Shown: positions 200 through 16,295 of the stretch, piece after piece
Layout of the letters: each line of letters starts with the position of its first letter
Numbering within the stretch: the first letter of the stretch is position 1
The notes under the pieces: generated by a model
What the model was told of the DNA's origin: nothing
The model's database searches: none
Seen by the model: only the letters and a program-made list of their open reading frames with translations
From: a virus
Taxonomy: Duplodnaviria > Heunggongvirae > Uroviricota > Caudoviricetes
DNA: 20,163 nucleotides
IMG/VR virus record: IMGVR_UViG_2718218396_000005
Reading direction: 5' to 3' (one strand)
Position numbers and translations under genes: made by a program

Positions 200-253
200 T
201 GAACCGCCCCGGGAATCCTGGAGACTAAACTCCCTGAGAAAGAGGTAAACAGG

Positions 254-580
254 ATGACTAAAAATACACGTTTTTCCCCCGAGGTCCGTCAACGGGCAGT
301 CCGTATGGTTCTGGAAAGTCAGGGCGAATATGACTCACAATGGGCGGCAATTTGTTCCATTGCCCCAAAGATTGGCTGTACACCAGAGACTCTGCGTGTG
401 TGGGTTCGTCAGCATGAGCGGGATACCGGGGGCGGTGATGGTGGACTCACCACCGCTGAACGTCAGCGTCTGAAAGAGCTGGAACGTGAAAATCGTGAAC
501 TGCGCCGCAGTAACGATATCCTTCGCCAGGCTTCCGCTTATTTTGCGAAGGCGGAGTTCGACCGCCTCTGGAAAAAATAA
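254..580 (+). CDS. IS629-like transposase OrfA (HTH / leucine-zipper DNA-binding subunit)
   Basis: 108-aa ORF from the track. GGAG-type RBS (AGAGG at 241-245) upstream. A6 run at 572-577 just before the stop is the likely -1 frameshift window for making the OrfAB fusion. Confidence 0.85.
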
Positions 581-1467
581 TGCCGCTGCTGGATAAGCTG
601 CGTGAGCAGTACGGGGTCGGACCGGTATGCAGTGAACTGCATATTGCCCCGTCAACGTATTACCACTGTCAGCAACAGCGACATCATCCGGATAAACGCA
701 GTGCCCGTGCGCAGCGCGATGACTGGCTGAAGAGAGAGATACAGCGCGTATACGATGAAAATCATCAGGTGTACGGTGTGCGTAAAGTCTGGCGCCAGTT
801 GTTACGCGAAGGTATCAGGGTGGCCAGATGTACAGTGGCGCGCCTCATGGCGGTTATGGGACTTGCCGGTGTTCTCCGGGGTAAAAAGGTCCGTACTACC
901 GTCAGCCGGAAAGCCGTTTCCGCAGGCGACCGCGTAAACCGTCAGTTCGTGGCAGAACGTCCTGACCAGCTGTGGGTGGCTGATTTTACTTACGTCAGCA
1001 CATGGCAGGGCTTCGTCTATGTGGCGTTCATCATTGATGTGTTTTCCGGATGTATCGTGGGGTGGCGAGTCTCATCGTCTATGGAAACGACATTCGTGCT
1101 GGATGCACTGGAGCAGGCGTTGTGGGCCCGTCGGCCGTCCGGCACAGTCCATCACAGTGATAAAGGTTCTCAGTATGTATCACTGGCCTATACGGAGCGA
1201 CTAAAAGAAGCAAAACTGCTGGCATCAACAGGGAGTACAGGTGACTCGTATGACAACGCGATGGCGGAGAGCATCAATGGTCTTTACAAAGCGGAGGTAA
1301 TACACCGTAAGAGCTGGAAAAACCGTGCAGAAGTGGAACTGGCCACACTCACGTGGGTGGACTGGTATAACAATCGACGATTGCTGGGAAGGCTGGGTCA
1401 TATCCCTCCGGCAGAAGCAGAAAAAGCTTATTATGCTTCCATCAGAAACGATGATCTGGCAGCCTGA
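580..1467 (+). CDS. IS629-like transposase OrfB (DDE integrase-type catalytic subunit)
   Basis: 295-aa ORF in the -1 frame relative to orfA, overlapping its stop (ATAATG). Contains the D...D...E region expected of an IS3-family catalytic core (..WVADFTYV.., ..HHSDKGSQY.., ..DNAMAESINGLYK..). Confidence 0.85.
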   Translation: MPLLDKLREQYGVGPVCSELHIAPSTYYHCQQQRHHPDKRSARAQRDDWLKREIQRVYDENHQVYGVRKVWRQLLREGIRVARCTVARLMAVMGLAGVLRGKKVRTTVSRKAVSAGDRVNRQFVAERPDQLWVADFTYVSTWQGFVYVAFIIDVFSGCIVGWRVSSSMETTFVLDALEQALWARRPSGTVHHSDKGSQYVSLAYTERLKEAKLLASTGSTGDSYDNAMAESINGLYKAEVIHRKSWKNRAEVELATLTWVDWYNNRRLLGRLGHIPPAEAEKAYYASIRNDDLAA

Positions 1468-1509
1468 GTTCACAGATAAAACACTCTCCAGGAAAACCGG
1501 GGCGGTTCA

Positions 1510-1587
1510 CTCCGCGAGAATATCAAAATCCGGCACTTTCACGTGGTCTGTGCCCTGACTGAGCAATTGCATGGTGGTGTCGGTCAT
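1510..1587 (-). pseudogene. D: Tail protein D, 5' fragment (start codon to IS629 insertion point)
   Basis: ATG at 1587-1585 on the minus strand, preceded by GGGAGG (reverse complement of 1594-1599) at 6-nt spacing. The frame runs without a stop into the IS right end at 1509 and resumes in the same frame at 196 once one copy of the CTC duplication is removed. Confidence 0.6.
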
Positions 1588-1745
1588 CTGTTCCCTCCCT
1601 GTGCGGCATGGTCGCATGTGCGTGCGGAGGGGGTTACTGCTTTTTGTTGTCGCCGTGGCGGGATGAACGGCGCAGGGGTGAGATTACGCGAGTGGTGGGT
1701 GATGATTGTTGCCGAATCATTTAACGGATACAAGGGGCTGAAGCT

Positions 1746-2930
1746 ATGAGTGAAACTCGTTTTCATGGTGCCCGTGTTACGGAAAGTACCGACCTGGTAA
1801 CAGCGATTAATGATGTTGATTCCAGTGTTATCGGTATCGTGGCAACGGCAGATGATGCGGACGCGGAGCTGTTCCCGCTGAACAAGCCCACACTGCTGAC
1901 CCGCGTCAATGACGTGCTGGGAAAATGCGGGACTACGGGGACGCTTTATCGTGCGCTTAAGGCTATCGCAGACCAGGTGAGCACAAAAGTGATCGTCGTT
2001 CGCGTGGCTGAACACAAAGAAGAAGGCGGTAAGACGCAGGATCAACTGGTTATCGGTGGTTCTGAATCTGACGGCAGCTATACGGGGATGTATGCGCTGC
2101 TTGTTGCAGAGCAGGATGAAAGCATCGGATACCGTCCGCGTATTCTGGCCGCGCCGGAGCTGGACACGGAGGCGGTAACAAAATCCCTGTGCGTGATTGC
2201 GGGTAAACTGCGCGCGTTTGTGTATGCCACATGTCATGGTTGTAACACGATGGCTGAGGCGATTACCTACCGCCAGAAATTCAACGAACGTGAGGTGATG
2301 CTCTTATGGCCTGACTTCATCGCCTACAACCTGAAAAGTGGCAAAAACGAAACGTTCCCCGCGCCTGCTTATGCGTGCGGCCTTCGTGCGTACATTGACC
2401 ATGAGCAGGGCTGGCACAAATCGCTGTCCAACGTTCCGGTTAAAAATGTGCTTGGGATGTCGAGGCATGTGTTCTGGTCGTTGCAGGCCGAAGACAGTGA
2501 TGCCAACAGCCTCAACAACAAAGAAATCACGACCATTATTCGTCGCAACGGGTTCCGCTTCTGGGGCAACCGCACACCGGAAACGAACGCCTACATCTTT
2601 GAGGTGTATACCCGAACCGCACAGGTGCTGGCTGATTCAATTGCGGAAGCGCAGTTTGAAACCATCGACAGTCCACTGACACCTGCGAACGTGAAGGATG
2701 TTATCAGTGCCATCAGGGCAAAACTGGATTCACTGGTTACTGCCGGGAAACTGATTGGCGCGGAGTGCTGGTATGACATCGAGGATAACAGCACCACGAA
2801 TTTACGTCAGGGGCGTGTGCGTATTCGCTACAAATATACGCCCGTTCCTCCGCTGGAAGACATGGAGCTTTACCAGTCGTTTACTGATGAATTCTTTGGT
2901 CCCGCATTTGCGGTGCTGGGAGGTGCCTGA
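1746..2930 (+). CDS. FI: Contractile tail sheath protein (P2 gpFI family)
   Basis: 394-aa ORF with AAGGGG RBS. Shares blocks I recall from P2 FI (ADDADAE.FPLNKP, LRAF.Y, WPDF, GLRA.ID.EQGWHK.LSNV, IRR.GFRFWGNRT, YTRTAQV.AD, YTPVPPLE). Stop overlaps the FII start (TGATG). Confidence 0.9.
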   Translation: MSETRFHGARVTESTDLVTAINDVDSSVIGIVATADDADAELFPLNKPTLLTRVNDVLGKCGTTGTLYRALKAIADQVSTKVIVVRVAEHKEEGGKTQDQLVIGGSESDGSYTGMYALLVAEQDESIGYRPRILAAPELDTEAVTKSLCVIAGKLRAFVYATCHGCNTMAEAITYRQKFNEREVMLLWPDFIAYNLKSGKNETFPAPAYACGLRAYIDHEQGWHKSLSNVPVKNVLGMSRHVFWSLQAEDSDANSLNNKEITTIIRRNGFRFWGNRTPETNAYIFEVYTRTAQVLADSIAEAQFETIDSPLTPANVKDVISAIRAKLDSLVTAGKLIGAECWYDIEDNSTTNLRQGRVRIRYKYTPVPPLEDMELYQSFTDEFFGPAFAVLGGA

Positions 2931-3442
2931 TGGCTGTACCAAAACATCTTCGCTTTTTTACGCTGTTTGTGGATGGTGAAAACGAAGTGGGTAAGGTGAC
3001 GTCCGTCACCCTGCCTAAACTGACGCGCAAAACCGACAGCTACCGGGGTGGTGGCATGATGGGTGCGGTAAGTATTGACCTCGGCCTGGACGACTCCGCG
3101 CTTGATGCGAGCTTTGTCATGGGGGGCGCAGTTCGTGAGCTGTTCCTGAAGTATGGCGGCACGATTGACGGCACGCTACTGCGTTTTGCGGGGGAATACT
3201 ACACCGATGATGAAAGCGACCTGTATGAAGTCGAAATGCGCGGACGTGTGACGGAAATTGATATGGGGGAAGCCAAACAGGGCGAAGCCACATCACACAC
3301 TTACGCCATTAAAAACACCTACTACAAGCTGAGTGTTAACGATCGCCCGTTGTGGGAGATTGACCTGCTGAACTTCATTTACCGGAAGGACGGCAAGGAC
3401 ATTGTGCCCGATCGCATCCGTTCCGCGCTTGGGCTTGGCTGA
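2930..3442 (+). CDS. FII: Tail tube protein (P2 gpFII family)
   Basis: 170-aa ORF translationally coupled to FI. Size and position (sheath then tube) fit contractile-tail operon order. Confidence 0.85.
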   Translation: MAVPKHLRFFTLFVDGENEVGKVTSVTLPKLTRKTDSYRGGGMMGAVSIDLGLDDSALDASFVMGGAVRELFLKYGGTIDGTLLRFAGEYYTDDESDLYEVEMRGRVTEIDMGEAKQGEATSHTYAIKNTYYKLSVNDRPLWEIDLLNFIYRKDGKDIVPDRIRSALGLG

Positions 3443-3496
3443 TAAGTAATATGCAGGCGGCGCAGTGCGTCGCCTCTGACTGAAAGGAGTTTCCTG

Positions 3497-3862
3497 ATGA
3501 AAGAGACGAAAAACATCGATACCGAAAACACGGTAGTTACTGACACTGTGAAAGAAACCAGTGAGCGTGGTGTAAAACTTACCCAACCAATTGAGCGAGG
3601 CGGCGAAAAAATCACGTATGTGGAGATCACCGGGGCTATTGAGCAGGCTGGATCTCTGCGAGATTTGTCGCTGTCTGATGTGCTGAATCTGAAAGCGGAA
3701 TCCATGTTTACGCTGCTGTCACGCGTGACATCACCGCGACTGGATGAAGTGACGATCAAAAAAATGGCATCCCGTGACTTTATTCAGTTATGTGTGGTTG
3801 CCGTAAATTTTTTGAGCGGTGCGGACTCTGGCGGGAAGAACGAACAGGCGACGGAAGCCTGA
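3497..3862 (+). CDS. E: Tail assembly chaperone E (zero-frame product)
   Basis: 121-aa ORF with AAGGAG RBS at 3484-3489. Lies between the tube and tape measure genes, as in P2 (E, E+E') and lambda (G, GT). Confidence 0.8.
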   Translation: MKETKNIDTENTVVTDTVKETSERGVKLTQPIERGGEKITYVEITGAIEQAGSLRDLSLSDVLNLKAESMFTLLSRVTSPRLDEVTIKKMASRDFIQLCVVAVNFLSGADSGGKNEQATEA

Positions 3863-4026
3863 TCACGGTTGTGTGCTTTGAGCACATAGAAGACTTTGTG
3901 GCAGATATTGCCGTTATTTTTAACTGGTCGCCCGCCGAAATCTTCATGATGACGCCCGGCGAAGTGGTTAGCTGGCGTGAGCGGGCGGCACTTCGCAGCG
4001 GGAATGCAGACAATGAAGACTCTTGA
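3497..4026 (+). CDS. Tail assembly chaperone E+E' made by programmed -1 ribosomal frameshift at 3808-3814
   Basis: Zero-frame codons AAT TTT TTG place the heptamer T TTT TTG at 3808-3814. After a -1 slip the reading continues ERCGLWREERTGDGSLITVVCFEHIEDFVADIAVIFNWSPAEIFMMTPGEVVSWRERAALRSGNADNEDS to the stop at 4024-4026, which is the 78-aa track ORF 3790..4026. Confidence 0.75.
3808..3814 (+). promoter_or_regulatory. Slippery heptamer T_TTT_TTG for the E/E' -1 frameshift
   Basis: X XXY YYZ motif in the E zero frame, with the -1 frame open downstream for 70 codons. Confidence 0.7.
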
Positions 4027-6103
4027 TATCCGGGTCGCTTTCAGCGCCGTTGACAGGCTGACCCGACCTGCCGAAAACGCACGCCGCCTGATGGGGCAGT
4101 TTGGTGACTCCATCCAGCGAACGCAGGGGGCGATCAAAAATCTCGAGCGTCAGGCGCGATCATTTGAGCGCGCCCGCGACGCTGTCAGTAAAGCGGATGC
4201 TGGCATCGTGAAAGCACGACGCCAGCTTAACGCCCTTAATCAGTTACAACGCACGGGTACAGTGCTCAGCGAAAAACAACAAAAGCTGATGCAGCAGTTA
4301 AGCACCCGGCTTGAACGCCTGAATGAATCGCGCACACGGGAAATTCAGAAAATGAGGGAACTTGGCGGAGAGCTGAAACGCCACGGCATTTCCCTGACAG
4401 GCAGCGATAACACCATTCAGCAGGCCATCAGACGCACCGAACAATACAACAACCAGCTTGAACGCGAACGGCAGGCGCTTGCGCGTGTAACGCAGGCGCG
4501 TGAGCGGTATTCGCACGCGCAGGAAACCGCGGGAAAACTGAAAACAGGTGGTGCGCTGGCAATTGGTGCGGCAGCGGCGGGCGGCTATGCTGCCGGGCGT
4601 TTTTTGCAGCCTGCGATCGGGTTCGGCAAAGAGATGTCCCGCGTTCAGGCACTGACGCGAATCGACAAAAACAGCCCGCAGTTTAAGGCGCTGCGTGAGC
4701 AGGCGTTAAAACTTGCTGAAACACAGTTTACTGCGAGTGATGCCGCCAGTGGGCAGAGCTTTCTGGCAATGGCTGGTTTTACTCCGCAGGCCATTCAGGC
4801 CGCATTGCCCGGTGTTCTTAATATGGCGCTGGCAGGTGGCGTCGAACTCGGCGAGACGGCTGATATAGGCTCCAATATCCTCACACAGTTCAACCTGACA
4901 GCCGATCAAATGGACCGGGTGGGCGATACGCTGACAGCAGCATTTACCCGGACCAATACTGATTTACGCGCGCTGGGCGAAACCATGAAGTATACCGGTC
5001 CGGTTGCCGCAAAACTTGGTATCAGTCTTGAAGAAGCGGCGGCCATGGCCGGGATGCTTGCCAATAATGGTCTTCGCGGAAGCGATGCTGGCACGGCCAT
5101 GCGCGCAAGTCTGTCCCGCCTTGCATCACCGCCAAAAGCTGCGGCTGATGCACTGAAAGAGCTGGGGGTGTCAGTTGCTGAGGCCAGAGGCAAAATGCGC
5201 CCGATGGAGGATGTGCTGCTTGATCTCTATAAGGCGACACAAAAATACGGACAGGTGGACCAGGTCTCCTTCTTCAAGGACATCGCCGGAGAAGAGGCGT
5301 TCGTTGGTTTGCAGACGCTTGTTGCGGCGGCTGGTTCAGGAGAGCTGCAAAAACTGACCAGAGAATTGCAGGGGGCAAGGGGAGAGGCCGATCGCGTCGC
5401 AAAAGTAATGGCTGATAATCTTGATGGGGACCTGAAAAATCTCGACAGCGCATGGGAAGGTCTTCGTATTCGCATCAGTGATCTGGTTGACGGTCCGCTG
5501 CGTTCTGTCACGCAGTGGCTCACGCGGGTGCTTGAAAAAATCACCTCGCTGGCGCAGGCCCATCCGGTACTGACGCGCCAGCTACTGATAGCAGGCGGTG
5601 CGTTGCTGGCAATGACTGCAACGATTGGCTCGTTGTCGCTGGTTATTGGGGTGCTTTACGGGAAGCTGGCCACCCTGCGTCTTGGTTTTGACATTCTTAC
5701 CCGGTCAATGAATGTCGTCAGGGTGTTACCTGCGCTATGGGGAATGGTGACGGGTTCCGTTTCTTTACTGGGAGGCGTTATCGGGGCGTTGTTCAGTCCG
5801 GTTGGTCTTATCGTGGCTGCGCTTGCCGGAGCTGCCGTTCTTATCTGGAAATACTGGGATCCTATCAGGGCTTTCTTTGCCGGGGTGTTCAGCGGGATTA
5901 TGGAAAGGCTGACCCCGTTGCGCGACACCTTTGAACGGTTTGGCCCTGTTTTTGACGTAATCGGAAGCGGTTCAGCCAGGTGTTTAACTGGTTTAAATCG
6001 CTGCTGTCACCGATGGAGTCCAGCAAGGAAACGCTGGATAAATGTACCAGTGCTGGCGAGGTATTCGGTAACGTTCTTGGTGGTGCGTTACAGCTTGTTC
6101 TGA
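4013..6103 (+). CDS. T: Tail tape measure protein (P2 gpT family), N-terminal and central part, ending prematurely after an apparent frameshift near 5956-5980
   Basis: Long ORF straight after E/E'. Coiled-coil-rich N-terminal third, alanine/glycine-rich central part and hydrophobic segments are typical of tape measure proteins. ATG 4013 (MKTLDIRV) is preferred over the track's GTG 3977 because it overlaps the E' end. The last 45 codons (RCLTGLNRCCHRWSP...) look like out-of-frame junk. Confidence 0.75.
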   Translation: MKTLDIRVAFSAVDRLTRPAENARRLMGQFGDSIQRTQGAIKNLERQARSFERARDAVSKADAGIVKARRQLNALNQLQRTGTVLSEKQQKLMQQLSTRLERLNESRTREIQKMRELGGELKRHGISLTGSDNTIQQAIRRTEQYNNQLERERQALARVTQARERYSHAQETAGKLKTGGALAIGAAAAGGYAAGRFLQPAIGFGKEMSRVQALTRIDKNSPQFKALREQALKLAETQFTASDAASGQSFLAMAGFTPQAIQAALPGVLNMALAGGVELGETADIGSNILTQFNLTADQMDRVGDTLTAAFTRTNTDLRALGETMKYTGPVAAKLGISLEEAAAMAGMLANNGLRGSDAGTAMRASLSRLASPPKAAADALKELGVSVAEARGKMRPMEDVLLDLYKATQKYGQVDQVSFFKDIAGEEAFVGLQTLVAAAGSGELQKLTRELQGARGEADRVAKVMADNLDGDLKNLDSAWEGLRIRISDLVDGPLRSVTQWLTRVLEKITSLAQAHPVLTRQLLIAGGALLAMTATIGSLSLVIGVLYGKLATLRLGFDILTRSMNVVRVLPALWGMVTGSVSLLGGVIGALFSPVGLIVAALAGAAVLIWKYWDPIRAFFAGVFSGIMERLTPLRDTFERFGPVFDVIGSGSARCLTGLNRCCHRWSPARKRWINVPVLARYSVTFLVVRYSLF

Positions 6104-6816
6104 CGCCTGCAAAAATGTTGCTGGATACGCTGGCGTGGATACTTGAAAAACTCGGTGTGCTTCCGGATGAAGCGGAAAGGGCGCGCAAGAAAATCGAAGA
6201 CGCACAACGTGCGGCCATTCTTCAGGACAAGGTTGCTCTGTTTCAGGGAGACATTGCGAAAATCAATCCGCCGAAGTCTGCGGGAAATAGCAATGGCACC
6301 GGAGATGATAAACCCAAAGACAACAAACCTCTCACAGACAGCAATACCGGCACGCTACGCAGACTCAGCAAAATTGCTGATAACACAGGTAAGCTGGTTG
6401 ATGAGACAAAAAAACGCATTGGCCCCGGCGATATTGTCTTTAAGAACCTGCCCCGCGCACTTGCTGTTCGTGGGGAGTGGCAGGAGCGGAAGATTGCGCA
6501 GGTCAGTAAGCCTGCCCCCGCAATTAATATCACACCCGTGGTCCCGGCTCCGCTGCCTCCGGCGCTGGTCCCTGTTGTTGCGGCCAGCTCCCGCCCGGTG
6601 GTGGAGGCCATACGATCGCCAGTGGCATCAGTTCCTGCAACTTCCCGTAACCGGGAGCCTGTTGCCTCCGGATTTGGCGGTGAAATTCATGTTCATCTGC
6701 ATAACGTTGTTACGCAGAATCCCCGCGAACTGGCGAAACTGGTCGGCGAAATGGTCAGGGCAGAAATGGAACGGCGCGCCCGTGCCAGGCGTGGCAGTTT
6801 TTACGATAAAGATTGA
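5956..6816 (+). CDS. T: Tail tape measure protein, C-terminal part in the +1 frame (continuation of gene T after the frameshift)
   Basis: This frame opens after a stop at 5953-5955 and reads ..SQVFNWFKSLLSPMESSKETL... to a stop at 6814-6816 immediately before the U gene. The track starts this ORF at GTG 5980. Confidence 0.65.
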   Translation, partial: RNRKRFSQVFNWFKSLLSPMESSKETLDKCTSAGEVFGNVLGGALQLVLTPAKMLLDTLAWILEKLGVLPDEAERARKKIEDAQRAAILQDKVALFQGDIAKINPPKSAGNSNGTGDDKPKDNKPLTDSNTGTLRRLSKIADNTGKLVDETKKRIGPGDIVFKNLPRALAVRGEWQERKIAQVSKPAPAINITPVVPAPLPPALVPVVAASSRPVVEAIRSPVASVPATSRNREPVASGFGGEIHVHLHNVVTQNPRELAKLVGEMVRAEMERRARARRGSFYDKD

Positions 6817-6828
6817 GGAGTCATGGCC

Positions 6829-7317
6829 ATGATGATGATCTACGGCATGTTTGTTTTTGAGCTGCGCACGTTGCCGCATCAGCAGTTACAGCAAAACAAA
6901 AGCTGGCGACATGTGAAAAATGAACGCGTTAACCGTTCAGCAAGCTGGCAGTATATCGGTGCAGGTGATGATCGCATCGTTCTTTCTGGTGTTCTTTATC
7001 CTGAGATTACTGGTGGCGAAGTGTCGCTGTCGTTGTTGACCACGCAGGCATATACAGGACGTCCTTGGCCTTTGATTGATGGCGTCGGGCAGATTTACGG
7101 CATGTATGTCCTGACCGGAACGAATACGACCCGCTCCGAGTTTGATCGCTACGGTAAGGCGAAAAAGATAGAATTTTCACTGACTCTTGAACGCTGTGAT
7201 GAGGATTTGCGGGAGCGCCTGCAATCCTCATCGTTCAGCGATATGCTGTCCGGCTTCAAAGATAAGGTGACATCATCCCTTAATAGCGCGGCCAGCTCAG
7301 TTAAGGGGCTGCTCTGA
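6829..7317 (+). CDS. U: Tail protein U (P2 gpU family)
   Basis: ORF 6823..7317 in the track. ATG 6829 is preferred because GAGGAG at 6815-6820 is 8 nt upstream. N-terminus MMMIYGMFVFELRTLPHQQLQ resembles what I recall of gpU, and it directly follows the tape measure gene. Confidence 0.8.
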   Translation: MMMIYGMFVFELRTLPHQQLQQNKSWRHVKNERVNRSASWQYIGAGDDRIVLSGVLYPEITGGEVSLSLLTTQAYTGRPWPLIDGVGQIYGMYVLTGTNTTRSEFDRYGKAKKIEFSLTLERCDEDLRERLQSSSFSDMLSGFKDKVTSSLNSAASSVKGLL

Positions 7318-7473
7318 TTTAACGTATGTCGCCAATTTCCTGATGAAGGTGACTGGCGACTTGCTGTTGTATGTCCTTCTCAGAAAATTGTTTTTGAATA
7401 ACAAATAACAGGATTTTATAATCTCTTAACCTTATAACATGTGTGGTCTGAAATAATAATTAAGGAGATTATC

Positions 7474-8046
7474 GTGCTATCTTACTTAATGGCAATTCAC
7501 TTTGTTTTATTTGGAAACTCTACTAATTTAAAAAACTTCTGGAAACATGAAGTAATTCGGCGGAAACGTATGGATATCTGGAGGCTTTTAAGAGAGAAAA
7601 AACAGCGTAACCGGAATTTCCTTTTCTGGTGGCGGTTGGCTAACGAAATGTATATTAATGGTAATAAATTACATAAGAAAGCAGCCAAAAAGTTAAACAG
7701 TAAAATAATTAACAAGTTTGGTTGTGAAATAGGATTGGGCGCAAATATTGGAAAAGGGTTGACAATTCCCCATCATGCTGGAATTGTTGTTCATTTTGCT
7801 GTTGATGCGGGTGAAAATCTGGTATTACGACAGAATACTACCATTGGACAGATAGATGGTGATATGCCTAGTTCAAGAGTAAAAATTGGTAGTAACGTTG
7901 ATATCGGAGCTAATTGTTGCATCATTGGATTATCACGTAAAATTGGGGATAATGTAAAAATAGGTGCAATGTCTTTTATAAATAAAGATATACCATCAAA
8001 CTGCACATATATAACTAAAAAGAGTGGTGTTGTATTGTATAAATAG
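7474..8046 (+). CDS. Hexapeptide-repeat (left-handed beta-helix) acyltransferase, serine O-acetyltransferase-like; low-GC cargo gene
   Basis: Strong RBS TAAGGAG at 7461-7467 with GTG 7474 at 6 nt (ATG 7489 is an alternative; the track's GTG 7441 would put the RBS inside the gene). Hexapeptide repeats IGLGANIGKGLTI / HHAGIVVHF / IGSNVDIGANCCIIG / IGDNVKIGAMSFI, and an N-terminal helical segment resembling CysE/WcaB-type acetyltransferases. Visibly AT-rich relative to the flanking tail genes. Confidence 0.75.
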   Translation: MLSYLMAIHFVLFGNSTNLKNFWKHEVIRRKRMDIWRLLREKKQRNRNFLFWWRLANEMYINGNKLHKKAAKKLNSKIINKFGCEIGLGANIGKGLTIPHHAGIVVHFAVDAGENLVLRQNTTIGQIDGDMPSSRVKIGSNVDIGANCCIIGLSRKIGDNVKIGAMSFINKDIPSNCTYITKKSGVVLYK

Positions 8047-8055
8047 AGTACATAA

Positions 8056-8090
8056 AGCCATCGATATTTCTGTCGATGGCTTTTTCTTTT
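8056..8090. terminator. Rho-independent terminator between the convergent acetyltransferase and tfa genes
   Basis: Perfect 8-bp stem GCCATCGA (8057-8064) / TCGATGGC (8073-8080) with an 8-nt loop, followed by TTTTTCTTTT (8081-8090). It starts 10 nt after the acetyltransferase stop and abuts the tfa stop codon. Confidence 0.65.
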
Positions 8091-8622
8091 TATTGTGGGG
8101 CGACTGGCCACTCAACATCCGCTGCTACTGTTGTATCAACACGATTCAACAATACCCGATATGTCTTCCATGCAGCCAGTAACGATGCCTCTTCCTCCGT
8201 CGCAATATCCAAATCTACGGCATCCTGAAGTGGCGCAATATGCTCACTGGCTACCTGCATCAGGCTGTTTTTTGTTTCTTCTGCCTCCCGTACCCGAAAC
8301 AGTTTTTCTGCTTCTGCATCTTTCGCCCAGGATGTGCCGTTCCACTTCTGACACTCTCCATCCGGCGACAACCAGGTAACATTTTCCGGTAACGGACCGA
8401 GTTCAGAAATAAATAACGCGTCGCCGGAAGCCACGTCATAAACCGTTTTACCCCGATGATCTTCAACGAGATGCCACGATGCCTCATTACTGTTGAAAAC
8501 AGCCACGAAGCCAGCCGGAATATCTGGCGGTGCAATATCGGTACTGTTTGCTGGCAGACCTGTATGAGGCGGAATGTATGCGTCACCTTCACCAATAAAT
8601 TCATTAGTTCCGGCCAGCAGAT
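8090..8622 (-). pseudogene. tfa: Tail fibre assembly protein (Tfa / P2 gpG family), 5' end removed by the IS629 copy at 8623
   Basis: Track ORF 8090..8506 ([57 protein letters not shown]...). The same frame stays open upstream to the IS boundary, reading [39 protein letters not shown] before the GTG. This matches my memory of E. coli Tfa proteins, which have about 15 more residues at the N-terminus. Confidence 0.7.
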
Positions 8623-9679
8623 TGAACCGCCCCGGGAATCCTGGAGACTAAACTCCCTGAGAAAGAGGTAAACAGGATGACTAAAAATACACGTTTTTCC
8701 CCCGAGGTCCGTCAACGGGCAGTCCGTATGGTTCTGGAAAGTCAGGGCGAATATGACTCACAATGGGCGGCAATTCGTTCCATTGCCCCAAAGATTGGCT
8801 GTACACCAGAGACTCTGCGTGTGTGGGTTCGTCAGCATGAGCGGGATACCGGGGGCGGTGATGGTGGACTCACCACCGCTGAACGTCAGCGTCTGAAAGA
8901 GCTGGAACGTGAAAATCGTGAACTGCGCCGCAGTAACGATATCCTTCGCCAGGCTTCCGCTTATTTTGCGAAGGCGGAGTTCGACCGCCTCTGGAAAAAA
9001 TAATGCCGCTGCTGGATAAGCTGCGTGAGCAGTACGGGGTCGGACCGGTATGCAGTGAACTGCATATTGCCCCGTCAACGTATTACCACTGTCAGCAACA
9101 GCGACATCATCCGGATAAACGCAGTGCCCGTGCGCAGCGCGATGACTGGCTGAAGAGAGAGATACAGCGCGTATACGATGAAAATCATCAGGTGTACGGT
9201 GTGCGTAAAGTCTGGCGCCAGTTGTTACGCGAAGGTATCAGGGTGGCCAGATGTACAGTGGCGCGCCTCATGGCGGTTATGGGACTTGCCGGTGTTCTCC
9301 GGGGTAAAAAGGTCCGTACTACCGTCAGCCGGAAAGCCGTTTCCGCAGGCGACCGCGTAAACCGTCAGTTCGTGGCAGAACGTCCTGACCAGCTGTGGGT
9401 GGCTGATTTTACTTACGTCAGCACATGGCAGGGCTTCGTCTATGTGGCGTTCATCATTGATGTGTTTTCCGGATGTATCGTGGGGTGGCGAGTCTCATCG
9501 TCTATGGAAACGACATTCGTGCTGGATGCACTGGAGCAGGCGTTGTGGGCCCGTCGGCCGTCCGGCACAGTCCATCACAGTGATAAAGGTTCTCAGTATG
9601 TATCACTGGCCTATACGGAGCGACTAAAAGAAGCAAAACTGCTGGCATCAACAGGGAGTACAGGTGACTCGTATGACAA
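8623..9679 (+). mobile_element. IS629-like element, second copy, truncated at the 3' end (first 1057 of 1310 bp); no right inverted repeat and no target duplication
   Basis: Colinear with copy 1 from the left end TGAACCGCCCCGG (8623) through position 9679, with one mismatch seen in the translation (copy 1 T353 vs copy 2 C8776; OrfA Cys vs Arg). From 9680 the sequence is unrelated and AT-rich. Confidence 0.8.
8677..9003 (+). CDS. IS629-like transposase OrfA (copy 2)
   Basis: 108-aa ORF identical to copy 1 OrfA except C->R at residue 34. Confidence 0.8.
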
Positions 9680-9692
9680 TGTATTTTATTAG
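9003..9692 (+). pseudogene. IS629-like transposase OrfB, truncated (about 225 of 295 codons); the ORF reads through the deletion junction
   Basis: Identical to copy 1 OrfB through ..STGDSYDN, then 3 junction-derived codons (VFY) and a stop. It lacks the C-terminal part including the E of the DDE region, so this copy cannot supply its own catalytic subunit. Confidence 0.8.
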
Positions 9693-9711
9693 TTCACATA
9701 CAATTATCAGA

Positions 9712-10026
9712 TTATTCTGGGAATAAGGTCTGAATATTCTTTTTTATTTTATAAAAATTGCATTCAACTCCGCTAGGCTGATTAGCCTGGTATGTTTCCT
9801 TGATGCTAACGGTATTGAAGGGGAGGTTGTCCTCTGGCCATTCGGCCATCCAGTAGGCAAATGCTGGGTTGCGCTTTATGAGTGCTAGCCCAGCCAGAAA
9901 GGCCGCGCGTTGCGCGCGGCTGCGTTCGGAGGCTGGCAGGCTATCGAGGTAATTGCACGCCTCCTGTTCACTCTTGACGGCGGCGGGCTTCAGATAGAAA
10001 CTTATCCGTCTGGTTGGTGTCGTCAT
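9712..10026 (-). CDS. parR: ParR-like ribbon-helix-helix centromere-binding protein (type II partition adaptor)
   Basis: 104-aa ORF just downstream of parM. N-terminal region ISFYLKPAAVKSEQEACNYLDSLPASERSRAQRAAFLAGLAL parallels R1 ParR as I recall it (IAFKLNPDV.....DTLDSIPQGERSRLNRAALTAGLAL). It ends soon after a ..LFPE motif, so it is shorter than R1 ParR. Confidence 0.7.
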   Translation of the reverse strand: MTTPTRRISFYLKPAAVKSEQEACNYLDSLPASERSRAQRAAFLAGLALIKRNPAFAYWMAEWPEDNLPFNTVSIKETYQANQPSGVECNFYKIKKNIQTLFPE

Positions 10027-10030
10027 TGGT

Positions 10031-10990
10031 TTACTCCTTGTTCATTGCGTACAACCCATTAACCAGAGCAAACTGTGGCACCCCGTCCGCGATGAAAGTC
10101 GCATTAACTCCGCAGGCTTCGCGGATAGCGGTTGCCACAATCTCCGCCCCGCCACCGACAACCATCACCCGCCCGTAACCCGAAAAAACCGCCAGCGCGC
10201 GGATCACGCGTTGTTTCAGTGTTTCTTCCTTTTCACGAATAACCGCCATCAGGCTGGCGTAATGCGCGTCATTGTGGATGTGCTGGCGCAGCCAGGCTTC
10301 ATCATGGCGATGTTCGATAATGGTATTGGCGATGTGGTGACTGGTGCGCATACCGTTAGTGGCCATCACCGACAGTACGGCATCGGCCATCAGAGAAACG
10401 CCTACGTGTGGATCGCAAAACACCTGGCTGATACCTGCCAGTTGCCCCTGAACCTTTGCCACATCCAGCGTGGTTCCGCCCAAATCCACAATCAGCAGGG
10501 ATTCAAACGGACTCATGTCAGCCAGTGCCTTAAAGCCAGCAGGAATGGATTCAGGCATAACCCGTACGTTACGGATAGTGAATGCTTCGCCGTTCTGGTA
10601 CTCCACCGGGCGCATGACGTTCGCTTTTTTGCGGTTGATGTTGGCCATGTCCGGCTGTGCGTTTGTATCGAAATACTCGCTCAGTGGCAGGGTGACAACC
10701 ACATCCACTTCCTGTGGTGTGATGCCTGATTTGACCAGCGCGTGATGAATGGCAATTACATTCACATCGCTGTACTGGTATTGCGTGTCGGTCGTCTGGA
10801 CAAAGCGATCGCTGACCGGATCAAAACCATAGCGCACGCCATCAAGCATGTAGTTCGCGGGCTGCGTGCCACCGAATGGCGCAGACCATTCCGACTTGAA
10901 GCTGTTCGGGCTGATGGCGTTGCGGCGTTCGCCGTTCTCAGTCCATGCCAGCTTGATGTTGGTGGAGCCGTCGTCGATACAAATTTTCAT
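10031..10990 (-). CDS. parM: ParM/StbA-like actin-fold ATPase (type II plasmid partition motor)
   Basis: 319-aa ORF. Blocks IDDGSTNIKL, ISPNSFK, YSDVNV..HHAL, MPESIPAG, DLGGTTLD, GVSL, GGGAE and LVNGLY line up along the whole length with R1 ParM as I recall it. Confidence 0.8.
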   Translation of the reverse strand: MKICIDDGSTNIKLAWTENGERRNAISPNSFKSEWSAPFGGTQPANYMLDGVRYGFDPVSDRFVQTTDTQYQYSDVNVIAIHHALVKSGITPQEVDVVVTLPLSEYFDTNAQPDMANINRKKANVMRPVEYQNGEAFTIRNVRVMPESIPAGFKALADMSPFESLLIVDLGGTTLDVAKVQGQLAGISQVFCDPHVGVSLMADAVLSVMATNGMRTSHHIANTIIEHRHDEAWLRQHIHNDAHYASLMAVIREKEETLKQRVIRALAVFSGYGRVMVVGGGAEIVATAIREACGVNATFIADGVPQFALVNGLYAMNKE

Positions 10991-11132
10991 GTCGCTTTTC
11001 CTTATGTTGATTAATTAATCGGTTACAGGATTTTTAAATCCCGCTTTTGCCTGTTTTGTGCGCGCTTCATATATCGCGGCGCGTTTTTTGCTCATTTACG
11101 GGATTTGTGAGTCCCGTTTCTGTCTGTTTTTT
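10991..11132 (-). promoter_or_regulatory. Candidate parC-like centromere/promoter region upstream of parM, with two imperfect direct repeats of about 34 bp
   Basis: ACAGGATTTTTAAATCCCGCTTTTGCCTGTTTTGTG (11027-11060) and ACGGGATTTGTGAGTCCCGTTTCTGTCTGTTTTTTG (11099-11132) are about 80% identical, and each holds a short internal inverted repeat. The second copy lies inside the 3' end of gene A. Confidence 0.3.
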
Positions 11133-13889
11133 GTTTCCACTGGTCAGGCCACCCCGCAGCAGGTCTGCTTTGCGGCTGGCGCGTTCAGTGGTTTCACTGA
11201 TTCTCTGTGCGTGCTCTGCGTCGCGGATGGCGCGCAGCATGTCAGAAAGCACGGTAACGGGTGTTTTCATGGTGTTCTGGTCCTGCTGAAGTGTGGATGC
11301 CAGGCGTGCGGCGGCTTCAGGGTCTGATGCCCCCAGCTGTGCCAGATAGCTGGCGACCGGGTTATGGCGGATCTCCGTGCTGCTTACGCCATGATTACGG
11401 CTCAGGCGCTGCCAGAGCTGCGTGATTCGGCTGTCCGGGCGGGTATCCGGTTTGCGTACAATTTCAAATCCCTGCGGTGCAATGATGCTGCCGTCAACGT
11501 ACAGACTGCCGCCCCGTAACAGGTGCTGCATCTGTTGTTCACCGATATGCAGGCCGAGAGATTCAGCAGACTCCCGCCATTCTTTAGCGAGTAATTCGTG
11601 GTTATCAGGCAAAGGCCGCTGCTGTTTGCGGCTCTGTGTCCAGCTCTGCATTTCATCACTGCTGTTTTTTGCCTGTTTGTCACGAAGCGAACGCATCAGC
11701 GCCCGGCGTTCGTGCCGTTTCAGTGAGCGCATCCATTCGTTCACGTCAACGCCGTCAGGAAGCTGCGGCCACGGTGCTGGCCGTTCTTCCGGCTGTTCTG
11801 TCCCGTTGTTGTCCGTTTCCTGTACACGGGGACAGTTATTGCCACGAGTCCAAGGGGCGGCAGGGCCGCCCTGAAGGTCAAAACCATTTTCGCGGGCGCT
11901 GTCTTCTACTCCCGGTTTACGTCTTACCAGCTTCCAGTTATCCGGGTGCGTGCACACACGGGAGGATTCCCCGATGAGTGGTGACCAGATCCCGTAAATC
12001 TGTACGCTCTGTTCGCCGTAATCGTTCAGCTCATCTGCGAGGTCGTAGGCGGTGCGAATCAGGTAGTCCTTGCGTGGAACAAGTACGCCTCCCTGTTTCT
12101 CAATGTAGGTGGTAAAACATCCGGCATCAGCGGCAGCAAGAACCGCATCCATTGCGTCATCCTTCAGCCGTTGCGGGCCTTCCGGGTTGCGTGCCATCTG
12201 GCTGGCAAGGCGACGCAGTTCACGCCACACCTGACGGGAGGGGATGCCAAAGAACTGGAACTGGCGGACCCGGTGAAGGCGCGCCCAGCCAATGGCGCGT
12301 TCCACGCTCTCGGTCATTGATTTTCCGGTTTCGTGGTCAACGCGTGGTTTGCCTGTTTTCGGGTCGATGCCATCCACGGCGCGGCTGTCCAGGTTTTTTC
12401 CGATGTAGGTGGCGATGTAGCTGGTTGGCGTGCCTTTTGAGCCGTCGACATACTCCGCCTTAAAGCGCGGAGTAATATCATCGCCCAGCTCGTGACGATC
12501 TTCCTGAATGGCAATATCGCGGGTGTGGGACACAATGGTGTCGATTTCTTCCGGATGAGCAAAGACCATCATATGCCAGTGCACGGTGCCGTCATGGTGA
12601 GGCTCCACCGTGCGGATGCCATACCAGCGCAGGCCGTCGCGGTTCAGTTTCTTGCGGACCGCCGCAAAAAACGTGTTAACCAGGTAATCGCTGGAGTCGC
12701 GCATGGTGGCCCCGTTCCATTTGGGATTCGGATGACCGTTCTCTGTTGTAGCGTGGTATTTTGACGGGCAGGTGACAGTCAGAAACACCGCTTTGTCGCC
12801 ACGGGCTTCGGCCAGAAGTTCCAGCCCCTTCATGGTGGCCATCATTTCTGCCTTACGGTGAACCGGGTTACTTACTCCCGCGTAATACACTGTCTCGAGA
12901 TCAATCGTGAACCCGTCTTCGTTTTCCAGCATGAAACTTTTCAGGAAATCGCGTGTTTTCTCGCGCTGTGCGCGAAACTCGCTTAACGCGTCCTGGCTCA
13001 GATAGGGCGATGTTTTTCTGGAAACCAGACAGGCGGCGCGGAGTTGTTCTTCTCTCCACTCGCAACGTAACAGCCACAGTTTGCGTTTCCACCATTCCGC
13101 ACAGGTCAGGCGAAGGATTGCGCCCGGCAGCAGCTCCGTGTCCGGTTCGTTCCTCCGGTCTTTGTCTGTTGTCAGTGCGTCATAATGTGGAGGCATGGCG
13201 TGCAGGTGTAACGCCATGCGGGCCAGCATCTGATACGCCTTCAGCGTTACATCCATGGTCAGTTCGCCATCGGTCGCGCCAAAGCCATCGCAGAGTTTTT
13301 CGAAGGTGCTGCTGAACATCGCCGCCGTCATGGTGGCCAGCGTCTGTATCTGGTGTTTGTTGAGCTGCGGCAGGTAAAGCAAATCGTCCAGGCGTTCGCG
13401 TCCGGCAAGGGAGCGATAACCCTGTGTCAGCCAGCGGTGATCGGTGCGCTCCAGACGTTCGAATATTTTGCGCAGGTTTCCGCGCGCGTAGCGTTCAGCC
13501 TGCCAGCTCTTTTTGCCTTTCTGACGATCGGCTTCCTGTTTTTTGCGCAGGAAGGAGAGGTGGCGAATAAGCGGATCGCGCAGATAGGACGGCAGCAGGC
13601 GCAGCGAGGCCATGGCTTCATCCACCGCACCGCGTGCCTGTTTTCTGGCGTCTCCTGCCAGTGTGATGGTTTTGTCCTGTTTTTCCTGTGCGTCCAGGCT
13701 TTTATTAATCAGGTTGCCCAGCGGCGTTGCGGAGAACGCCGCATCAGCCATTTCCTGGCGGCGCTCGTTCTCTACCCGGTAGGCATCCAGCCAGGAGGAA
13801 AGCGCGGATTCAGGAGCGGGGATCCCCGTTCCTTCACGCCCCACTGCGTGGCGCGGTTGTTGCCAGTCCCTGATGTACTCTGCCGTCAT
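11067..13889 (-). CDS. A: Replication initiation endonuclease (P2 gpA / phiX174 A superfamily rolling-circle initiator)
   Basis: 940-aa ORF with an HUH-type motif (GTVHWHMMVFAH) and a paired-tyrosine motif (SYIATYIGKN) resembling the phiX174 A active site YVAKYVNK. It sits at the end of the early operon as in P2. Confidence 0.8.
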   Translation of the reverse strand: MTAEYIRDWQQPRHAVGREGTGIPAPESALSSWLDAYRVENERRQEMADAAFSATPLGNLINKSLDAQEKQDKTITLAGDARKQARGAVDEAMASLRLLPSYLRDPLIRHLSFLRKKQEADRQKGKKSWQAERYARGNLRKIFERLERTDHRWLTQGYRSLAGRERLDDLLYLPQLNKHQIQTLATMTAAMFSSTFEKLCDGFGATDGELTMDVTLKAYQMLARMALHLHAMPPHYDALTTDKDRRNEPDTELLPGAILRLTCAEWWKRKLWLLRCEWREEQLRAACLVSRKTSPYLSQDALSEFRAQREKTRDFLKSFMLENEDGFTIDLETVYYAGVSNPVHRKAEMMATMKGLELLAEARGDKAVFLTVTCPSKYHATTENGHPNPKWNGATMRDSSDYLVNTFFAAVRKKLNRDGLRWYGIRTVEPHHDGTVHWHMMVFAHPEEIDTIVSHTRDIAIQEDRHELGDDITPRFKAEYVDGSKGTPTSYIATYIGKNLDSRAVDGIDPKTGKPRVDHETGKSMTESVERAIGWARLHRVRQFQFFGIPSRQVWRELRRLASQMARNPEGPQRLKDDAMDAVLAAADAGCFTTYIEKQGGVLVPRKDYLIRTAYDLADELNDYGEQSVQIYGIWSPLIGESSRVCTHPDNWKLVRRKPGVEDSARENGFDLQGGPAAPWTRGNNCPRVQETDNNGTEQPEERPAPWPQLPDGVDVNEWMRSLKRHERRALMRSLRDKQAKNSSDEMQSWTQSRKQQRPLPDNHELLAKEWRESAESLGLHIGEQQMQHLLRGGSLYVDGSIIAPQGFEIVRKPDTRPDSRITQLWQRLSRNHGVSSTEIRHNPVASYLAQLGASDPEAAARLASTLQQDQNTMKTPVTVLSDMLRAIRDAEHAQRISETTERASRKADLLRGGLTSGNKKQTETGLTNPVNEQKTRRDI

Positions 13890-13895
13890 AGTGAT

Positions 13896-14261
13896 TTACT
13901 TCGTCATGCCATTCAGGGTGTCGCGGCAGGCTGTAGCCAGCCGCTGAATTTCCAGCACGGTGTCTTCTGTGTCGGCATGGCGATGTGTGATGCGGATGCT
14001 GTCGGCAATCACATCGACGATTGCAGAGGATGGGCGCTGGTAAATGCCAATAACGGACGGGGTGCCACCTTCAATGCGGTAAAGCCTGTAATTTCCCTCG
14101 TGGCTGTCAATCATGTAGCGACCATCAATAACAATCTTTCCGTCAGCGAGCTGCGGTACAGGCAGGGATTTCAGGTACATGTCATAACGATCACGCACGC
14201 GAGCGGCAAGATCACGTTCTGTGTTGAGCAGGTATTCAAGAAAGTCGTTGGCGAGAATCAT
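13896..14261 (-). CDS. Hypothetical early-operon protein (121 aa) immediately upstream of A
   Basis: ORF in the track whose stop is 6 nt before the A start. No family recognised. Confidence 0.55.
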   Translation of the reverse strand: MILANDFLEYLLNTERDLAARVRDRYDMYLKSLPVPQLADGKIVIDGRYMIDSHEGNYRLYRIEGGTPSVIGIYQRPSSAIVDVIADSIRITHRHADTEDTVLEIQRLATACRDTLNGMTK

Positions 14262-14333
14262 TGCGGCAATCCTCTTGTTACAGATGTGCGAAGGCCTCCC
14301 GCCGCAAGGTGCAGGAAAGGCCCGGAACAGGAA

Positions 14334-14564
14334 TTAATGGAGTTTGTTTTGCTGCTGGATGAGCTGTTGAAACTCGTGCAGATCATCCGCCAGATAGCTG
14401 AAAACAGAGGCGGAATAAATGTTTGATAGTGCGTGGCTGCGCTCATGCAGCATATTGATGTGCATGATTTGCGCGACGCGTGATGCGCGGGAAAGTCTGC
14501 GGTTGATTTCAGTCTGGATGTGACGACGCTCCGCGATAGCGCGGTGCTGTTTGCGGTCTGCCAT
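14334..14564 (-). CDS. Hypothetical small basic protein (76 aa)
   Basis: ORF in the track with an AAGAGG-type RBS (reverse complement of about 14572-14577) 7 nt upstream of the ATG. Basic and helical in character. Confidence 0.5.
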   Translation of the reverse strand: MADRKQHRAIAERRHIQTEINRRLSRASRVAQIMHINMLHERSHALSNIYSASVFSYLADDLHEFQQLIQQQNKLH

Positions 14565-14744
14565 GGTGTGGCCTCTTTGCTCGGTGATAGAAATAACTCA
14601 CCATCCAGAGTTGAGAATCTCGGGGTGGCGAGACGTACAGGGTTCTCAACACCGGAGAGCAAAGAATCCGGCCCGACCGAAGTCGGCCCCGTACGCCCCG
14701 CCATAATTCTGACGCGAAAAAGACGTGGCAATACAGTACGCACA

Positions 14745-14765
14745 AAAAAACCGCTAGCGCGGTTA
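14745..14765 (-). terminator. Rho-independent terminator inside the early operon (minus strand)
   Basis: On the minus strand, stem AACCGC / GCGGTT with loop GCTA followed by a run of T (plus strand A run at 14745-14751). It lies about 120 nt downstream of the 99-aa gene stop. Confidence 0.45.
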
Positions 14766-14886
14766 TGCGCTTTGCTCTGTATCGGGTTGAGAATCCCGGC
14801 ACCCGTTTTATGAGGTGCAGCGGAAATGTAACCTGACCGATTGCGGCATGGCAAGCGGTTTTTTTGTGTGTGCATGTTCTGGTTTC

Positions 14887-15186
14887 TTACTGGTTCAGAA
14901 AAAAATCAAAAACGTTATCGATGCGTTGCAGCAGCTCTTGCTGCATTGCTTCCGGCGTTTCCGGTTCGCCAGGTGCCCCCAGCGTTGCGCAGAAATCAGC
15001 GATTTCATGATGGAGCGTGAGGCGAATGGCAGGAGCCGTGGTTCTGGCGTGCTCCAGCTGATCCAGCAGTGCCAGCACAGCAGACGGCGAGAGCATTGCG
15101 CGAAATGCCAGTAATTTTTGAGGCGTTGCCATTCGTTGCAGGGCAAATGCCAGTTCGCGTAGCTTCTGGTGGTTGATGGTGCTCAT
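14887..15186 (-). CDS. Hypothetical early-operon protein (99 aa)
   Basis: ORF in the track; its start overlaps the stop of the upstream 88-aa gene (ATGA-type overlap at 15183-15186). Confidence 0.6.
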   Translation of the reverse strand: MSTINHQKLRELAFALQRMATPQKLLAFRAMLSPSAVLALLDQLEHARTTAPAIRLTLHHEIADFCATLGAPGEPETPEAMQQELLQRIDNVFDFFLNQ

Positions 15187-15449
15187 GCTCTGGCTTCCTT
15201 CAGTAGCTGGTTAAACATGTGAGTAAGTGGATTGCTACACCCGAACGGCATCGGGTTTACGTGGTAAGAAGCCTGGCCTCCTGTTTTGCGAGCGCGACCA
15301 CCTGTGCTGCGGTTTGTTCTGATGACTAAGCCGCCGCGCCAAAGTCGGCGTAACTCAGCATTAATGGCTGTGGTTGGGGTATTCAGTGCTGCGGCGATCT
15401 CTCCGCCGCTACACCCCGGATGAGTAGCGATGTAGTCCAGAATGGTCAT
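15183..15449 (-). CDS. Small winged-helix DNA-binding protein (88 aa)
   Basis: ORF in the track with a helix-turn-helix-like segment GCSGGEIAAALNTPTTAINAELRRLWRGGLV. Translationally coupled to its neighbours. Confidence 0.6.
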   Translation of the reverse strand: MTILDYIATHPGCSGGEIAAALNTPTTAINAELRRLWRGGLVIRTNRSTGGRARKTGGQASYHVNPMPFGCSNPLTHMFNQLLKEARA

Positions 15450-15649
15450 CTGCGTGGCTCCTGTACCTGTCGGATAAGATTTACTCGCGCCACGTTGGTG
15501 GCGCAGAAGTAAGTGCCGTCAGTGAGGTAGATGTGGTGTGCATCCTTTTCCGAACGATGTTTGTCGATAGTGGTAATCAGGCGTTCGTCGACCTCGTATT
15601 CGCGCCCTCTGGAGGTAAAGCGAACGACGGGAAAATGCTTAATTGCCAT
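15446..15649 (-). CDS. Hypothetical early-operon protein (67 aa)
   Basis: ORF in the track; its stop overlaps the next gene's start. Confidence 0.5.
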   Translation of the reverse strand: MAIKHFPVVRFTSRGREYEVDERLITTIDKHRSEKDAHHIYLTDGTYFCATNVARVNLIRQVQEPRR

Positions 15650-15672
15650 TGCGCCCCCTTTGTCCAGTAACC

Positions 15673-16089
15673 CTATGCGTTAAATACGGCACGTTGCGCG
15701 TCATCAATGAATACAGCTTGAGAGCGTTCTATCAGGCGGAGATTTGTCAGAAGCTCTGACTCTTTTGTGTGGTAAGGCGTTATCAGGTATTTGCCGTGCA
15801 GTTCGGCAATAATGGTGTATTGCAGCATCATTGCTGAACCAAGAATATAAATGCAGCGTCCAATGCTGGACGGATTCATGGCTGCAACTGTTGACTGTGT
15901 TTTAAGAGTGTCGATTTCTTTGCTCTGTTCCTCAATAACTTTGGCTGCTTCAGGGGTGGCTATTGCGATGGTCAGTGCGTAAAGCGCTGCCATATGTTGA
16001 TTATCTTTCTGGGCTGCCCTGGACAGTTTGTCTTGCTCTGCTGACACTATTTTTAATGTATTGATAATATTTTTTTCTTTTGCGTTCAT
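15673..16089 (-). CDS. Hypothetical protein (138 aa), AT-rich gene
   Basis: ORF in the track with a GGAG RBS (reverse complement of about 16097-16100). Lower GC than neighbours. Confidence 0.6.
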   Translation of the reverse strand: MNAKEKNIINTLKIVSAEQDKLSRAAQKDNQHMAALYALTIAIATPEAAKVIEEQSKEIDTLKTQSTVAAMNPSSIGRCIYILGSAMMLQYTIIAELHGKYLITPYHTKESELLTNLRLIERSQAVFIDDAQRAVFNA

Positions 16090-16181
16090 TTTATATCTCC
16101 GTTATTTACGTGTGCGAATACCTCCGCGAATGCGGATAGTTTTCAGGTTTTCGGGTTTAATCTGGTGTTCTGTTTAAGCTG

Positions 16182-16295
16182 TTATTTGTCAGTGAAAAAG
16201 CGTTCAATCTTTTTTACTGAATGAATAATTCGCATAATCCCAATGGCGCAGGCCACCGAAATAATCAGAACAAGCCATGAGATAAATATACTCAT
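16182..16295 (-). CDS. Unlisted small ORF encoding a 37-aa single-pass hydrophobic peptide (MSIFISWLVLIISVACAIGIMRIIHSVKKIERFFTDK)
   Basis: ATG at 16295-16293 overlaps the TGA stop of the upstream 80-aa gene (ATGA coupling). About 20 hydrophobic residues are followed by a basic amphipathic tail, and the stop is at 16184-16182. Too short for the supplied ORF track. Confidence 0.45.
   Translation of the reverse strand: MSIFISWLVLIISVACAIGIMRIIHSVKKIERFFTDK

Follow-up and report, generated by a model that had tools for sequence, protein, structure and literature searches.

The closest described counterparts of the locus examined here are the tail operons of phages 500465-2 (Gemsvirus) and P88 (Xuanwuvirus), in which the genes for sheath, tube, E, E′, T and U follow one another in this order and the tape measure gene T encodes a PF10145 protein. 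Tape measure proteins must be full length, with one end engaging the baseplate hub. As for the prophage concerned, Asadulghani et al. 2009 (PMC2669165) described Sp13 of Escherichia coli O157:H7 as devoid of most phage functions, with the majority of the morphogenetic genes among those missing, and Table 1 of that work lists its one remaining tail function as defective. According to the same work, mitomycin C still induces Sp13, the element excises and replicates, and a low level of packaging of its DNA takes place (PMC2669165). Because it is inducible, replicating and packaged, the element is not inert, with this activity concerning its early region.

The window analysed here, a stretch of 20,163 nucleotides, is contained as an exact substring in the chromosome of strain 7784 (NZ_CP018247.1), for which the recorded source is cattle faeces in the UK. 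Positions 1510-20163 were 99.96% identical to the region of the Sakai chromosome labelled "prophage Sp13, P2-like phage", which adjoins the tRNA-Leu gene leuZ in the Sakai record. This identity places the prophage of the window as Sp13, the P2-like cryptic prophage of O157:H7 strain Sakai, which we take to be the element named CP-933T in EDL933. A literature search for CP-933T turned up expression data mentioned in passing only, and no treatment of the T gene. A megablast search of the tail region against phage records returned 13 Peduoviridae with at least 80% query coverage and 89-97% identity; phage 500465-2, P88 and other Xuanwuvirus phages are among these 13 records.

The gene order in the window is sheath (1746-2930), tube (2930-3442), E (3497-3862), E′ (to 4026), T and U, so T lies where a tape measure gene is expected, after the chaperone pair E/E′ and before U. 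The features of this part of the operon are as follows.

3497-3862, plus strand: tail assembly chaperone gene E, directly 5′ of T, with a weak match to PF10109 Phage_TAC_7 (E 0.005, below the curated cutoff)
3808-3814, plus strand: slippery heptamer T_TTT_TTG, in register in E, from sequence and reading frames
4013-6816, plus strand: tail tape measure gene T (P2 gpT homologue), a frameshifted pseudogene, from RefSeq, profile matches and the restored ORF
6823-7317, plus strand: tail gene U, intact, with a match to PF06995 Phage_P2_GpU (E 1.5e-38)

Gene E carries the RefSeq label "tail protein". The E′ frame is open from 3790 to 4026, and the heptamer at 3808-3814 is placed such that a −1 shift would fuse E to E′; the annotation places a "GpE family phage tail protein" at the equivalent of window 3871-4026. 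We presume this heptamer to be the E/E′ frameshift site known from P2. The putative E/E′ site would then be the genuine programmed frameshift of the operon, unrelated to the disruption of T described below.

The assignment of T is supported by a PF10145 PhageMin_Tail match over residues 228-426 (E 3.2e-54, 184 bits against a cutoff of 33.2) and by a match of its first part to phrog_28, "tail length tape measure protein" (E 3e-206). A second profile, phrog_17114, spans the break in the gene, with the end of the N-terminal fragment covering profile positions 1-111 and the C-terminal frame covering 111-388. Given that the two pieces matched adjoining stretches of one profile, they represent consecutive parts of one protein. 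The upstream frame runs from the annotated ATG at 4013 (the first possible start being GTG at 3977) to a stop at 6101-6103. The last stop in the downstream frame falls at 5953-5955; from 5956 this frame stays open as far as 6816, which leaves 6 nt up to U (6823). The two frames overlap by 148 nt. An initial sequence-only reading had proposed a tape measure gene split by a missing base, with a stop at 6103, a +1 frame open from 5956 to 6816 and U directly behind it, and these coordinates agreed with the sequence to within a few bases throughout.

To place the lesion, T was aligned to phages 500465-2 and P88, to E. coli FDN-24, and to the same prophage in O157 strains 493/89 and PV15-279. The affected positions are listed here.

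5956-6816, plus strand: open downstream frame, the orphaned C-terminal 281 codons of T, from the frame and from identity to intact proteins
5969-5971, plus strand: the lesion, ancestral GGGA to GGT (GA>T, net −1 nt), after codon 653, from the alignments
5972-6103, plus strand: aberrant out-of-frame tail of 43 codons plus the stop at 6101-6103, from translation

The intact genes read AGC GGG ATC AGC CAG GTG (S G I S Q V), while the window and Sakai read AGC GG- TTC AGC, indicating that the lesion trims the GGG run to GG and abolishes a GATC site. Comparison with related tape measure proteins, as the sequence-only reading had suggested, thus gave the exact indel as GA>T at 5969-5971, inside the interval 5969-5976 put forward there. 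Two details of that proposal did not hold: its example of a restored sequence, GGTTTC (S-G-F-S), gives Phe where the ancestral GGGATC (S-G-I-S-Q-V) gives Ile, and its statement that the site has no homopolymer run overlooks the ancestral GGG, now GG. Restorations with an extra T (Phe) or with GGGTTC were discarded, with GGGTTC found in no E. coli genome and the intact relatives all having GGGATC. A pure one-base slip in the G run, which would pass through GGATC, was also discarded. Neither of the simple intermediates, GGGTTC or GGATC, was found in any E. coli genome of the collection, and the adjacent A>T change shows that the event was not a plain one-base slip. Judged from these sequences, the lesion would represent either one complex change or two steps with an unsampled intermediate.

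Beyond codon 653 (GGT, 5969-5971), the upstream frame reads 43 aberrant codons, SARCLTGLNRCCHRWSPARKRWINVPVLARYSVTFLVVRYSLF, close to the 45 or so junk-like codons estimated from the sequence initially, and this tail had no match in the intact tape measure proteins. The predicted product from the T start is 696 aa in length. Writing GGGATC back into the gene gave an ORF of 934 aa (935 codons including the stop, against an earlier estimate of about 930) with no internal stop. The restored 934-aa protein was colinear with the 935-aa tape measure proteins of 500465-2 and P88: its N-terminal 653 residues were 97.1% identical to the former and 91.9% to the latter, and its C-terminal 281 residues 94.7% and 96.4%, respectively. 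The proposal of a plausible C-terminal domain beyond the break, and of one T gene split by a net loss of one base, is thereby borne out. T formed a single intact ORF in all five relatives (500465-2, P88, FDN-24, O157 493/89 and LSU61), while in the window it does not form the full-length ORF of 935 codons seen in these relatives. A frameshift pseudogene is expected to show an indel against its intact orthologues while its two halves line up with a single ORF, as seen here, and because the frame is lost at 5969-5971 with a stop at 6103, T is a pseudogene of its family and not a functional member.

Beyond the frameshift, the restored protein differed from that of 493/89 at two places only, GS>A (residues 235-236) and D391E. 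The first results from an in-frame deletion at window 4716.

4714-4717, plus strand: 3-nt in-frame deletion relative to 493/89, CTTGGCTCTGAA to CTTGCTGAA, changing Gly-Ser to Ala at residues 235-236, from the alignment

The T gene of PV15-279 carries this deletion without the frameshift. Given that the 3-nt deletion is common to PV15-279, which lacks the frameshift, it is the older of the two events. D391E stems from an SNP at 5182 that is absent in Sakai, 493/89 and PV15-279.

The distribution of the two alleles was determined in complete E. coli genomes. A 551-nt query around the lesion found matches in 1,371 of them and was 100% identical in many O157:H7 strains, Sakai, EDL933 and 7784 being examples. 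The mutant 71-mer (window 5935-6005) was present in 264 of 5,426 genomes, in one copy each, with Sakai, two EDL933 assemblies and strain 7784 among the carriers; in 60 sampled carriers, every record stating a serotype gave O157. The remaining matches, about 997 records, span 72 nt and represent the in-frame version. The ancestral 72-mer itself was found in 25 genomes, four of which are labelled O157:H7 (493/89, LSU61, F3113 and PV15-279). The lesion is not new, being already on record in the RefSeq annotation of O157:H7 genomes as "phage tail tape measure protein, frameshifted" (Sakai ECs_2640, EDL933_RS14220 and 7784 BFL18_RS13520). The allele could nevertheless serve as a simple marker of the typical O157:H7 clade.

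The lesion and its exact position were observed directly, as were its fixation in the clade, an intact ancestral gene and the deletions that go with it. The frameshift in T is almost certainly a real, vertically inherited loss-of-function mutation in the decaying P2-like prophage Sp13, and no finding speaks directly against this. Three other accounts were weighed against it. An error in a single record, with the actual gene intact, could be suspected from the short G run (GGG) of the ancestral site, where base-calling errors can arise. However, the same allele recurs in 264 complete genomes that were assembled independently, by many laboratories and in different years, the adjacent A>T substitution is not a pure homopolymer length error, and no genome has either simple intermediate. 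A sequencing or assembly error, already thought less likely in the sequence-only reading, was rejected on these 264 concordant assemblies, and its probability is practically nil. A different possibility is that the mutation is real but that a −1 slip rescues the frame and yields a certain amount of full-length tape measure protein. Where the two frames overlap there is one heptamer of the appropriate type, and no other.

5992-5998, plus strand: T_TTA_AAT heptamer, in register in the shifted frame, judged coincidental

In the mRNA, U_UUA_AAU is a canonical X_XXY_YYZ sequence in the right register, 22 nt 3′ of the lesion and inside the 148-nt overlap. The product of a slip would have SARCLTGL at residues 654-661 in place of the ISQVFNWF of intact relatives, so that, if true, a natural frameshift mutation would be partly suppressed by a fortuitous recoding site, giving a near-native protein with eight altered residues. 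Against this, such a heptamer arises by chance in 17% of shuffled overlaps, and in the intact gene these bases are read as W-F-K, indicating that they were not selected for slippage. No stimulatory structure was predicted downstream, where the minimum free energy of −23.7 kcal/mol compares with −21.3 on average in shuffles (z = −0.86), and in E. coli A_AAU slips poorly as an A-site codon. The two-frame arrangement is furthermore not conserved, being confined to genomes with the mutant allele while the intact relatives are single-frame, and a rescued tape measure protein would be without partners, the baseplate and head genes being missing. We therefore set aside recoding at this site as a coincidence, on the chance frequency of 17% and the z of −0.86, and consider it very unlikely.

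It is less probable still that the gene has become a functional pair, in which an N-terminal protein of 696 aa and a C-terminal one of about 270 aa, translated from its own start, cooperate or have taken on new roles. The downstream frame is open across its full length, PHROGs families of the C-terminal part alone exist (phrog_17114 and phrog_5431), indicating that such fragments are called as genes elsewhere, and T of phage record 520873 likewise comes in two pieces. However, a Shine-Dalgarno-like sequence, as seen before genes E, U and FII (tube), is absent in front of the candidate starts GTG 5980 and ATG 6013, and separate translation of the C-terminal part was rejected for want of a convincing ribosome-binding site before either of them. 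In each of the five intact relatives examined, T is one ORF. Related phages in which T is divided into two genes at this very point would have spoken for such a split, but 520873 alone is split and its break lies elsewhere, near codon 382 (also given as roughly 650 codons further upstream) and not at codon 653. The recent origin of the mutation accounts for the open downstream frame, with 99.86% identity between this locus and the intact version.

The loss-of-function reading also accords with the state of the rest of the prophage. In the window, Sp13 retains sheath, tube, E, E′, T, U, an O-acetyltransferase gene and a truncated tail-fibre assembly gene, together with an early region of partition genes, a 940-aa replication protein, regulators and integrase. 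The window contains no genes for the baseplate, tail fibre, lysis, head or packaging, and gene D is present only as a fragment adjoining IS30. Two copies of IS629 are also present, one full length and one partial.

200-1509, plus strand: full-length IS629 of 1310 bp with a 3-bp target duplication (CTC), in the gene D remnant, specific to strain 7784
8623-9679, plus strand: partial IS629/IS1203, marking the deletion of fibre, baseplate, lysis, head and packaging genes, from comparison with 493/89

The junction that joins the partial IS629 to the partition gene (stbB; window 9590-9780) was found in 264 genomes, the same count as for the frameshift allele, the two being compared by number. The prophages of 493/89 and LSU61 both have fibre, baseplate (V, W, J, I) and lysis genes. 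Head and terminase genes were seen in 493/89, while the stretch read in LSU61 ends before them. The record of 493/89 labels the strain O157:H7. Gene D of 493/89 is disrupted by IS30.

From these comparisons, a likely ancestor would have been a nearly complete P2-like prophage, as in 493/89 and LSU61, with intact T and with gene D already disrupted. The 3-nt in-frame deletion in T, common to PV15-279, probably came next. The GA>T frameshift and the IS629-linked deletion of late genes, each present in 264 genomes, would have followed in either order. In this scheme, the reading frame of T is lost at codon 653-654 through a small complex replacement of GGGATC by GGTTC (net −1 nt), and the predicted 696-aa product would keep the N-terminal PhageMin_Tail region and the hydrophobic segments, gain 43 missense residues and lose the last 281. 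We infer that such a truncated tape measure product would be unable to support tail assembly. Whether truncated T can nucleate tube assembly is moot, since the hub and baseplate genes are missing. Because gene D and the baseplate, fibre, lysis and head/packaging genes are lost too, the frameshift appears as one of several neutral decay events with no separate function. Given that the lesion was already annotated and Sp13 already described as defective, the finding is of little importance by itself, and its added value lies only in a tidy reconstruction of the path by which Sp13 decayed.

Compared with the known systems, the window is nearest to Sakai, where ECs_2640 in Sp13 is the same gene with the same lesion and the T gene of the window differs from it by one SNP (5182); strain 7784 further differs from Sakai by one extra IS629 in its gene D remnant. 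The same prophage also occupies the leuZ-adjacent integration site of O157 strains 493/89 and LSU61, where the T genes have GGGATC, lack the 3-nt deletion and encode proteins of 935 aa (WP_000853407.1 and WP_000853406.1, respectively). The tube, E, E′, U and O-acetyltransferase proteins of these two are identical to those of the window, while the sheath differs by accession, and the 493/89 prophage shares 99.86% DNA identity with the window across 7.1 kb. At a greater distance, T of 500465-2 and P88 is 92-97% (N-terminal part) and 95-96% (C-terminal part) identical at the protein level to that of the window, and is a single intact ORF of 935 codons in these functional or predicted-complete phages, whereas T of the window is broken. 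Finally, the disruption of T is to be distinguished from the putative programmed −1 shift of E/E′, analogous to lambda G/GT, which would take place in the same operon 5′ of T, where T_TTT_TTG is present. The lesion in T is clade-specific, absent from the relatives and without a conserved signal, whereas the E/E′ shift is conserved in all of the relatives.

The features of the Sp13 prophage considered here are as follows, in window coordinates.
200-1509: full-length IS629 (1310 bp) with a 3-bp target duplication, CTC, lying within the remnant of tail gene D.
3808-3814: canonical T_TTT_TTG heptamer, in register in tail chaperone gene E (3497-3862).
4714-4717: 3-nt in-frame deletion in the tape measure gene T, changing Gly-Ser to Ala at residues 235-236.
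5992-5998: T_TTA_AAT heptamer, 22 nt downstream of the net -1 nt lesion in T and in the -1 register owing to that lesion.
8623-9780: partial IS629 and deletion junction marking the late-gene deletion (18690-32072 in L009, a locus read outside the window).
7441-8046 and 9712-10990: cargo of a non-phage-like kind, with a hexapeptide-repeat O-acetyltransferase gene between tail gene U and the fibre-assembly gene and a ParM/StbA-type plasmid partition pair adjoining the replication gene.

The 3-nt deletion in T was scored relative to all phage relatives and to 493/89 and LSU61, two O157 strains carrying the same prophage with T intact. In PV15-279, a strain labelled O157:H7, the same prophage carries this deletion without the frameshift in T, indicating that, on sequence comparison, the 3-nt deletion is the older of the two. 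The PV15-279 prophage has lost the sheath and tube genes, E and some 165 codons at the start of T (L008, the PV15-279 locus, 12582-14571), while the baseplate and head genes are kept. This IS30/IS629-associated deletion is distinct from that of the window, and the comparison shows independent routes of decay of one prophage among sister lineages.

At the partial IS629 of the window, the fibre, baseplate, lysis, head and terminase genes were removed, all of which the prophage of 493/89 retains. In 264 genomes the junction of this deletion was found, a count equal to that of the frameshift allele. When 5,426 complete E. coli genomes were searched for the junction of the IS629 insertion in the gene D remnant, only strain 7784 had it, which shows that IS629 is still active in Sp13. 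At 1664, on the upstream side of the sheath gene, the window has one T more than 493/89 and the O157:H7 strain Sakai (GGGATGAAC versus GGGAGAAC), for which either a mutation peculiar to the strain or an error of assembly may account; the strain 7784 annotation places a 68-aa hypothetical protein there (1543-1749; L006, the strain 7784 locus, 10344-10550).

The T_TTT_TTG heptamer is placed for a -1 shift into the E' frame (3790-4026), the end of which falls inside the start of T, and would be the candidate for a genuine programmed frameshift of the operon, yielding an E+E' fusion. Chance alone gave heptamers of the T_TTA_AAT type in 17% of shuffled sequences, and the one at 5992-5998 is not accompanied by any structure downstream.

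Three PHROG families, phrog_17114, phrog_5431 and phrog_38463, matched only the C-terminal third of the T protein (5980-6813), with E-values of 4e-188, 5e-162 and 7e-101, respectively. All three carry the label 'unknown function'; they seem to have been made from tape measure gene fragments, and could be relabelled.

An annotated break is also present in the tape measure gene of the related phage 520873 (NC_049344.1; L007, the locus read from this phage, 1124-3930), where two ORFs are recorded, 1124-2269 and 2317-3930. This break, which may be real or an assembly error, is independent of that in Sp13 and lies at another position.
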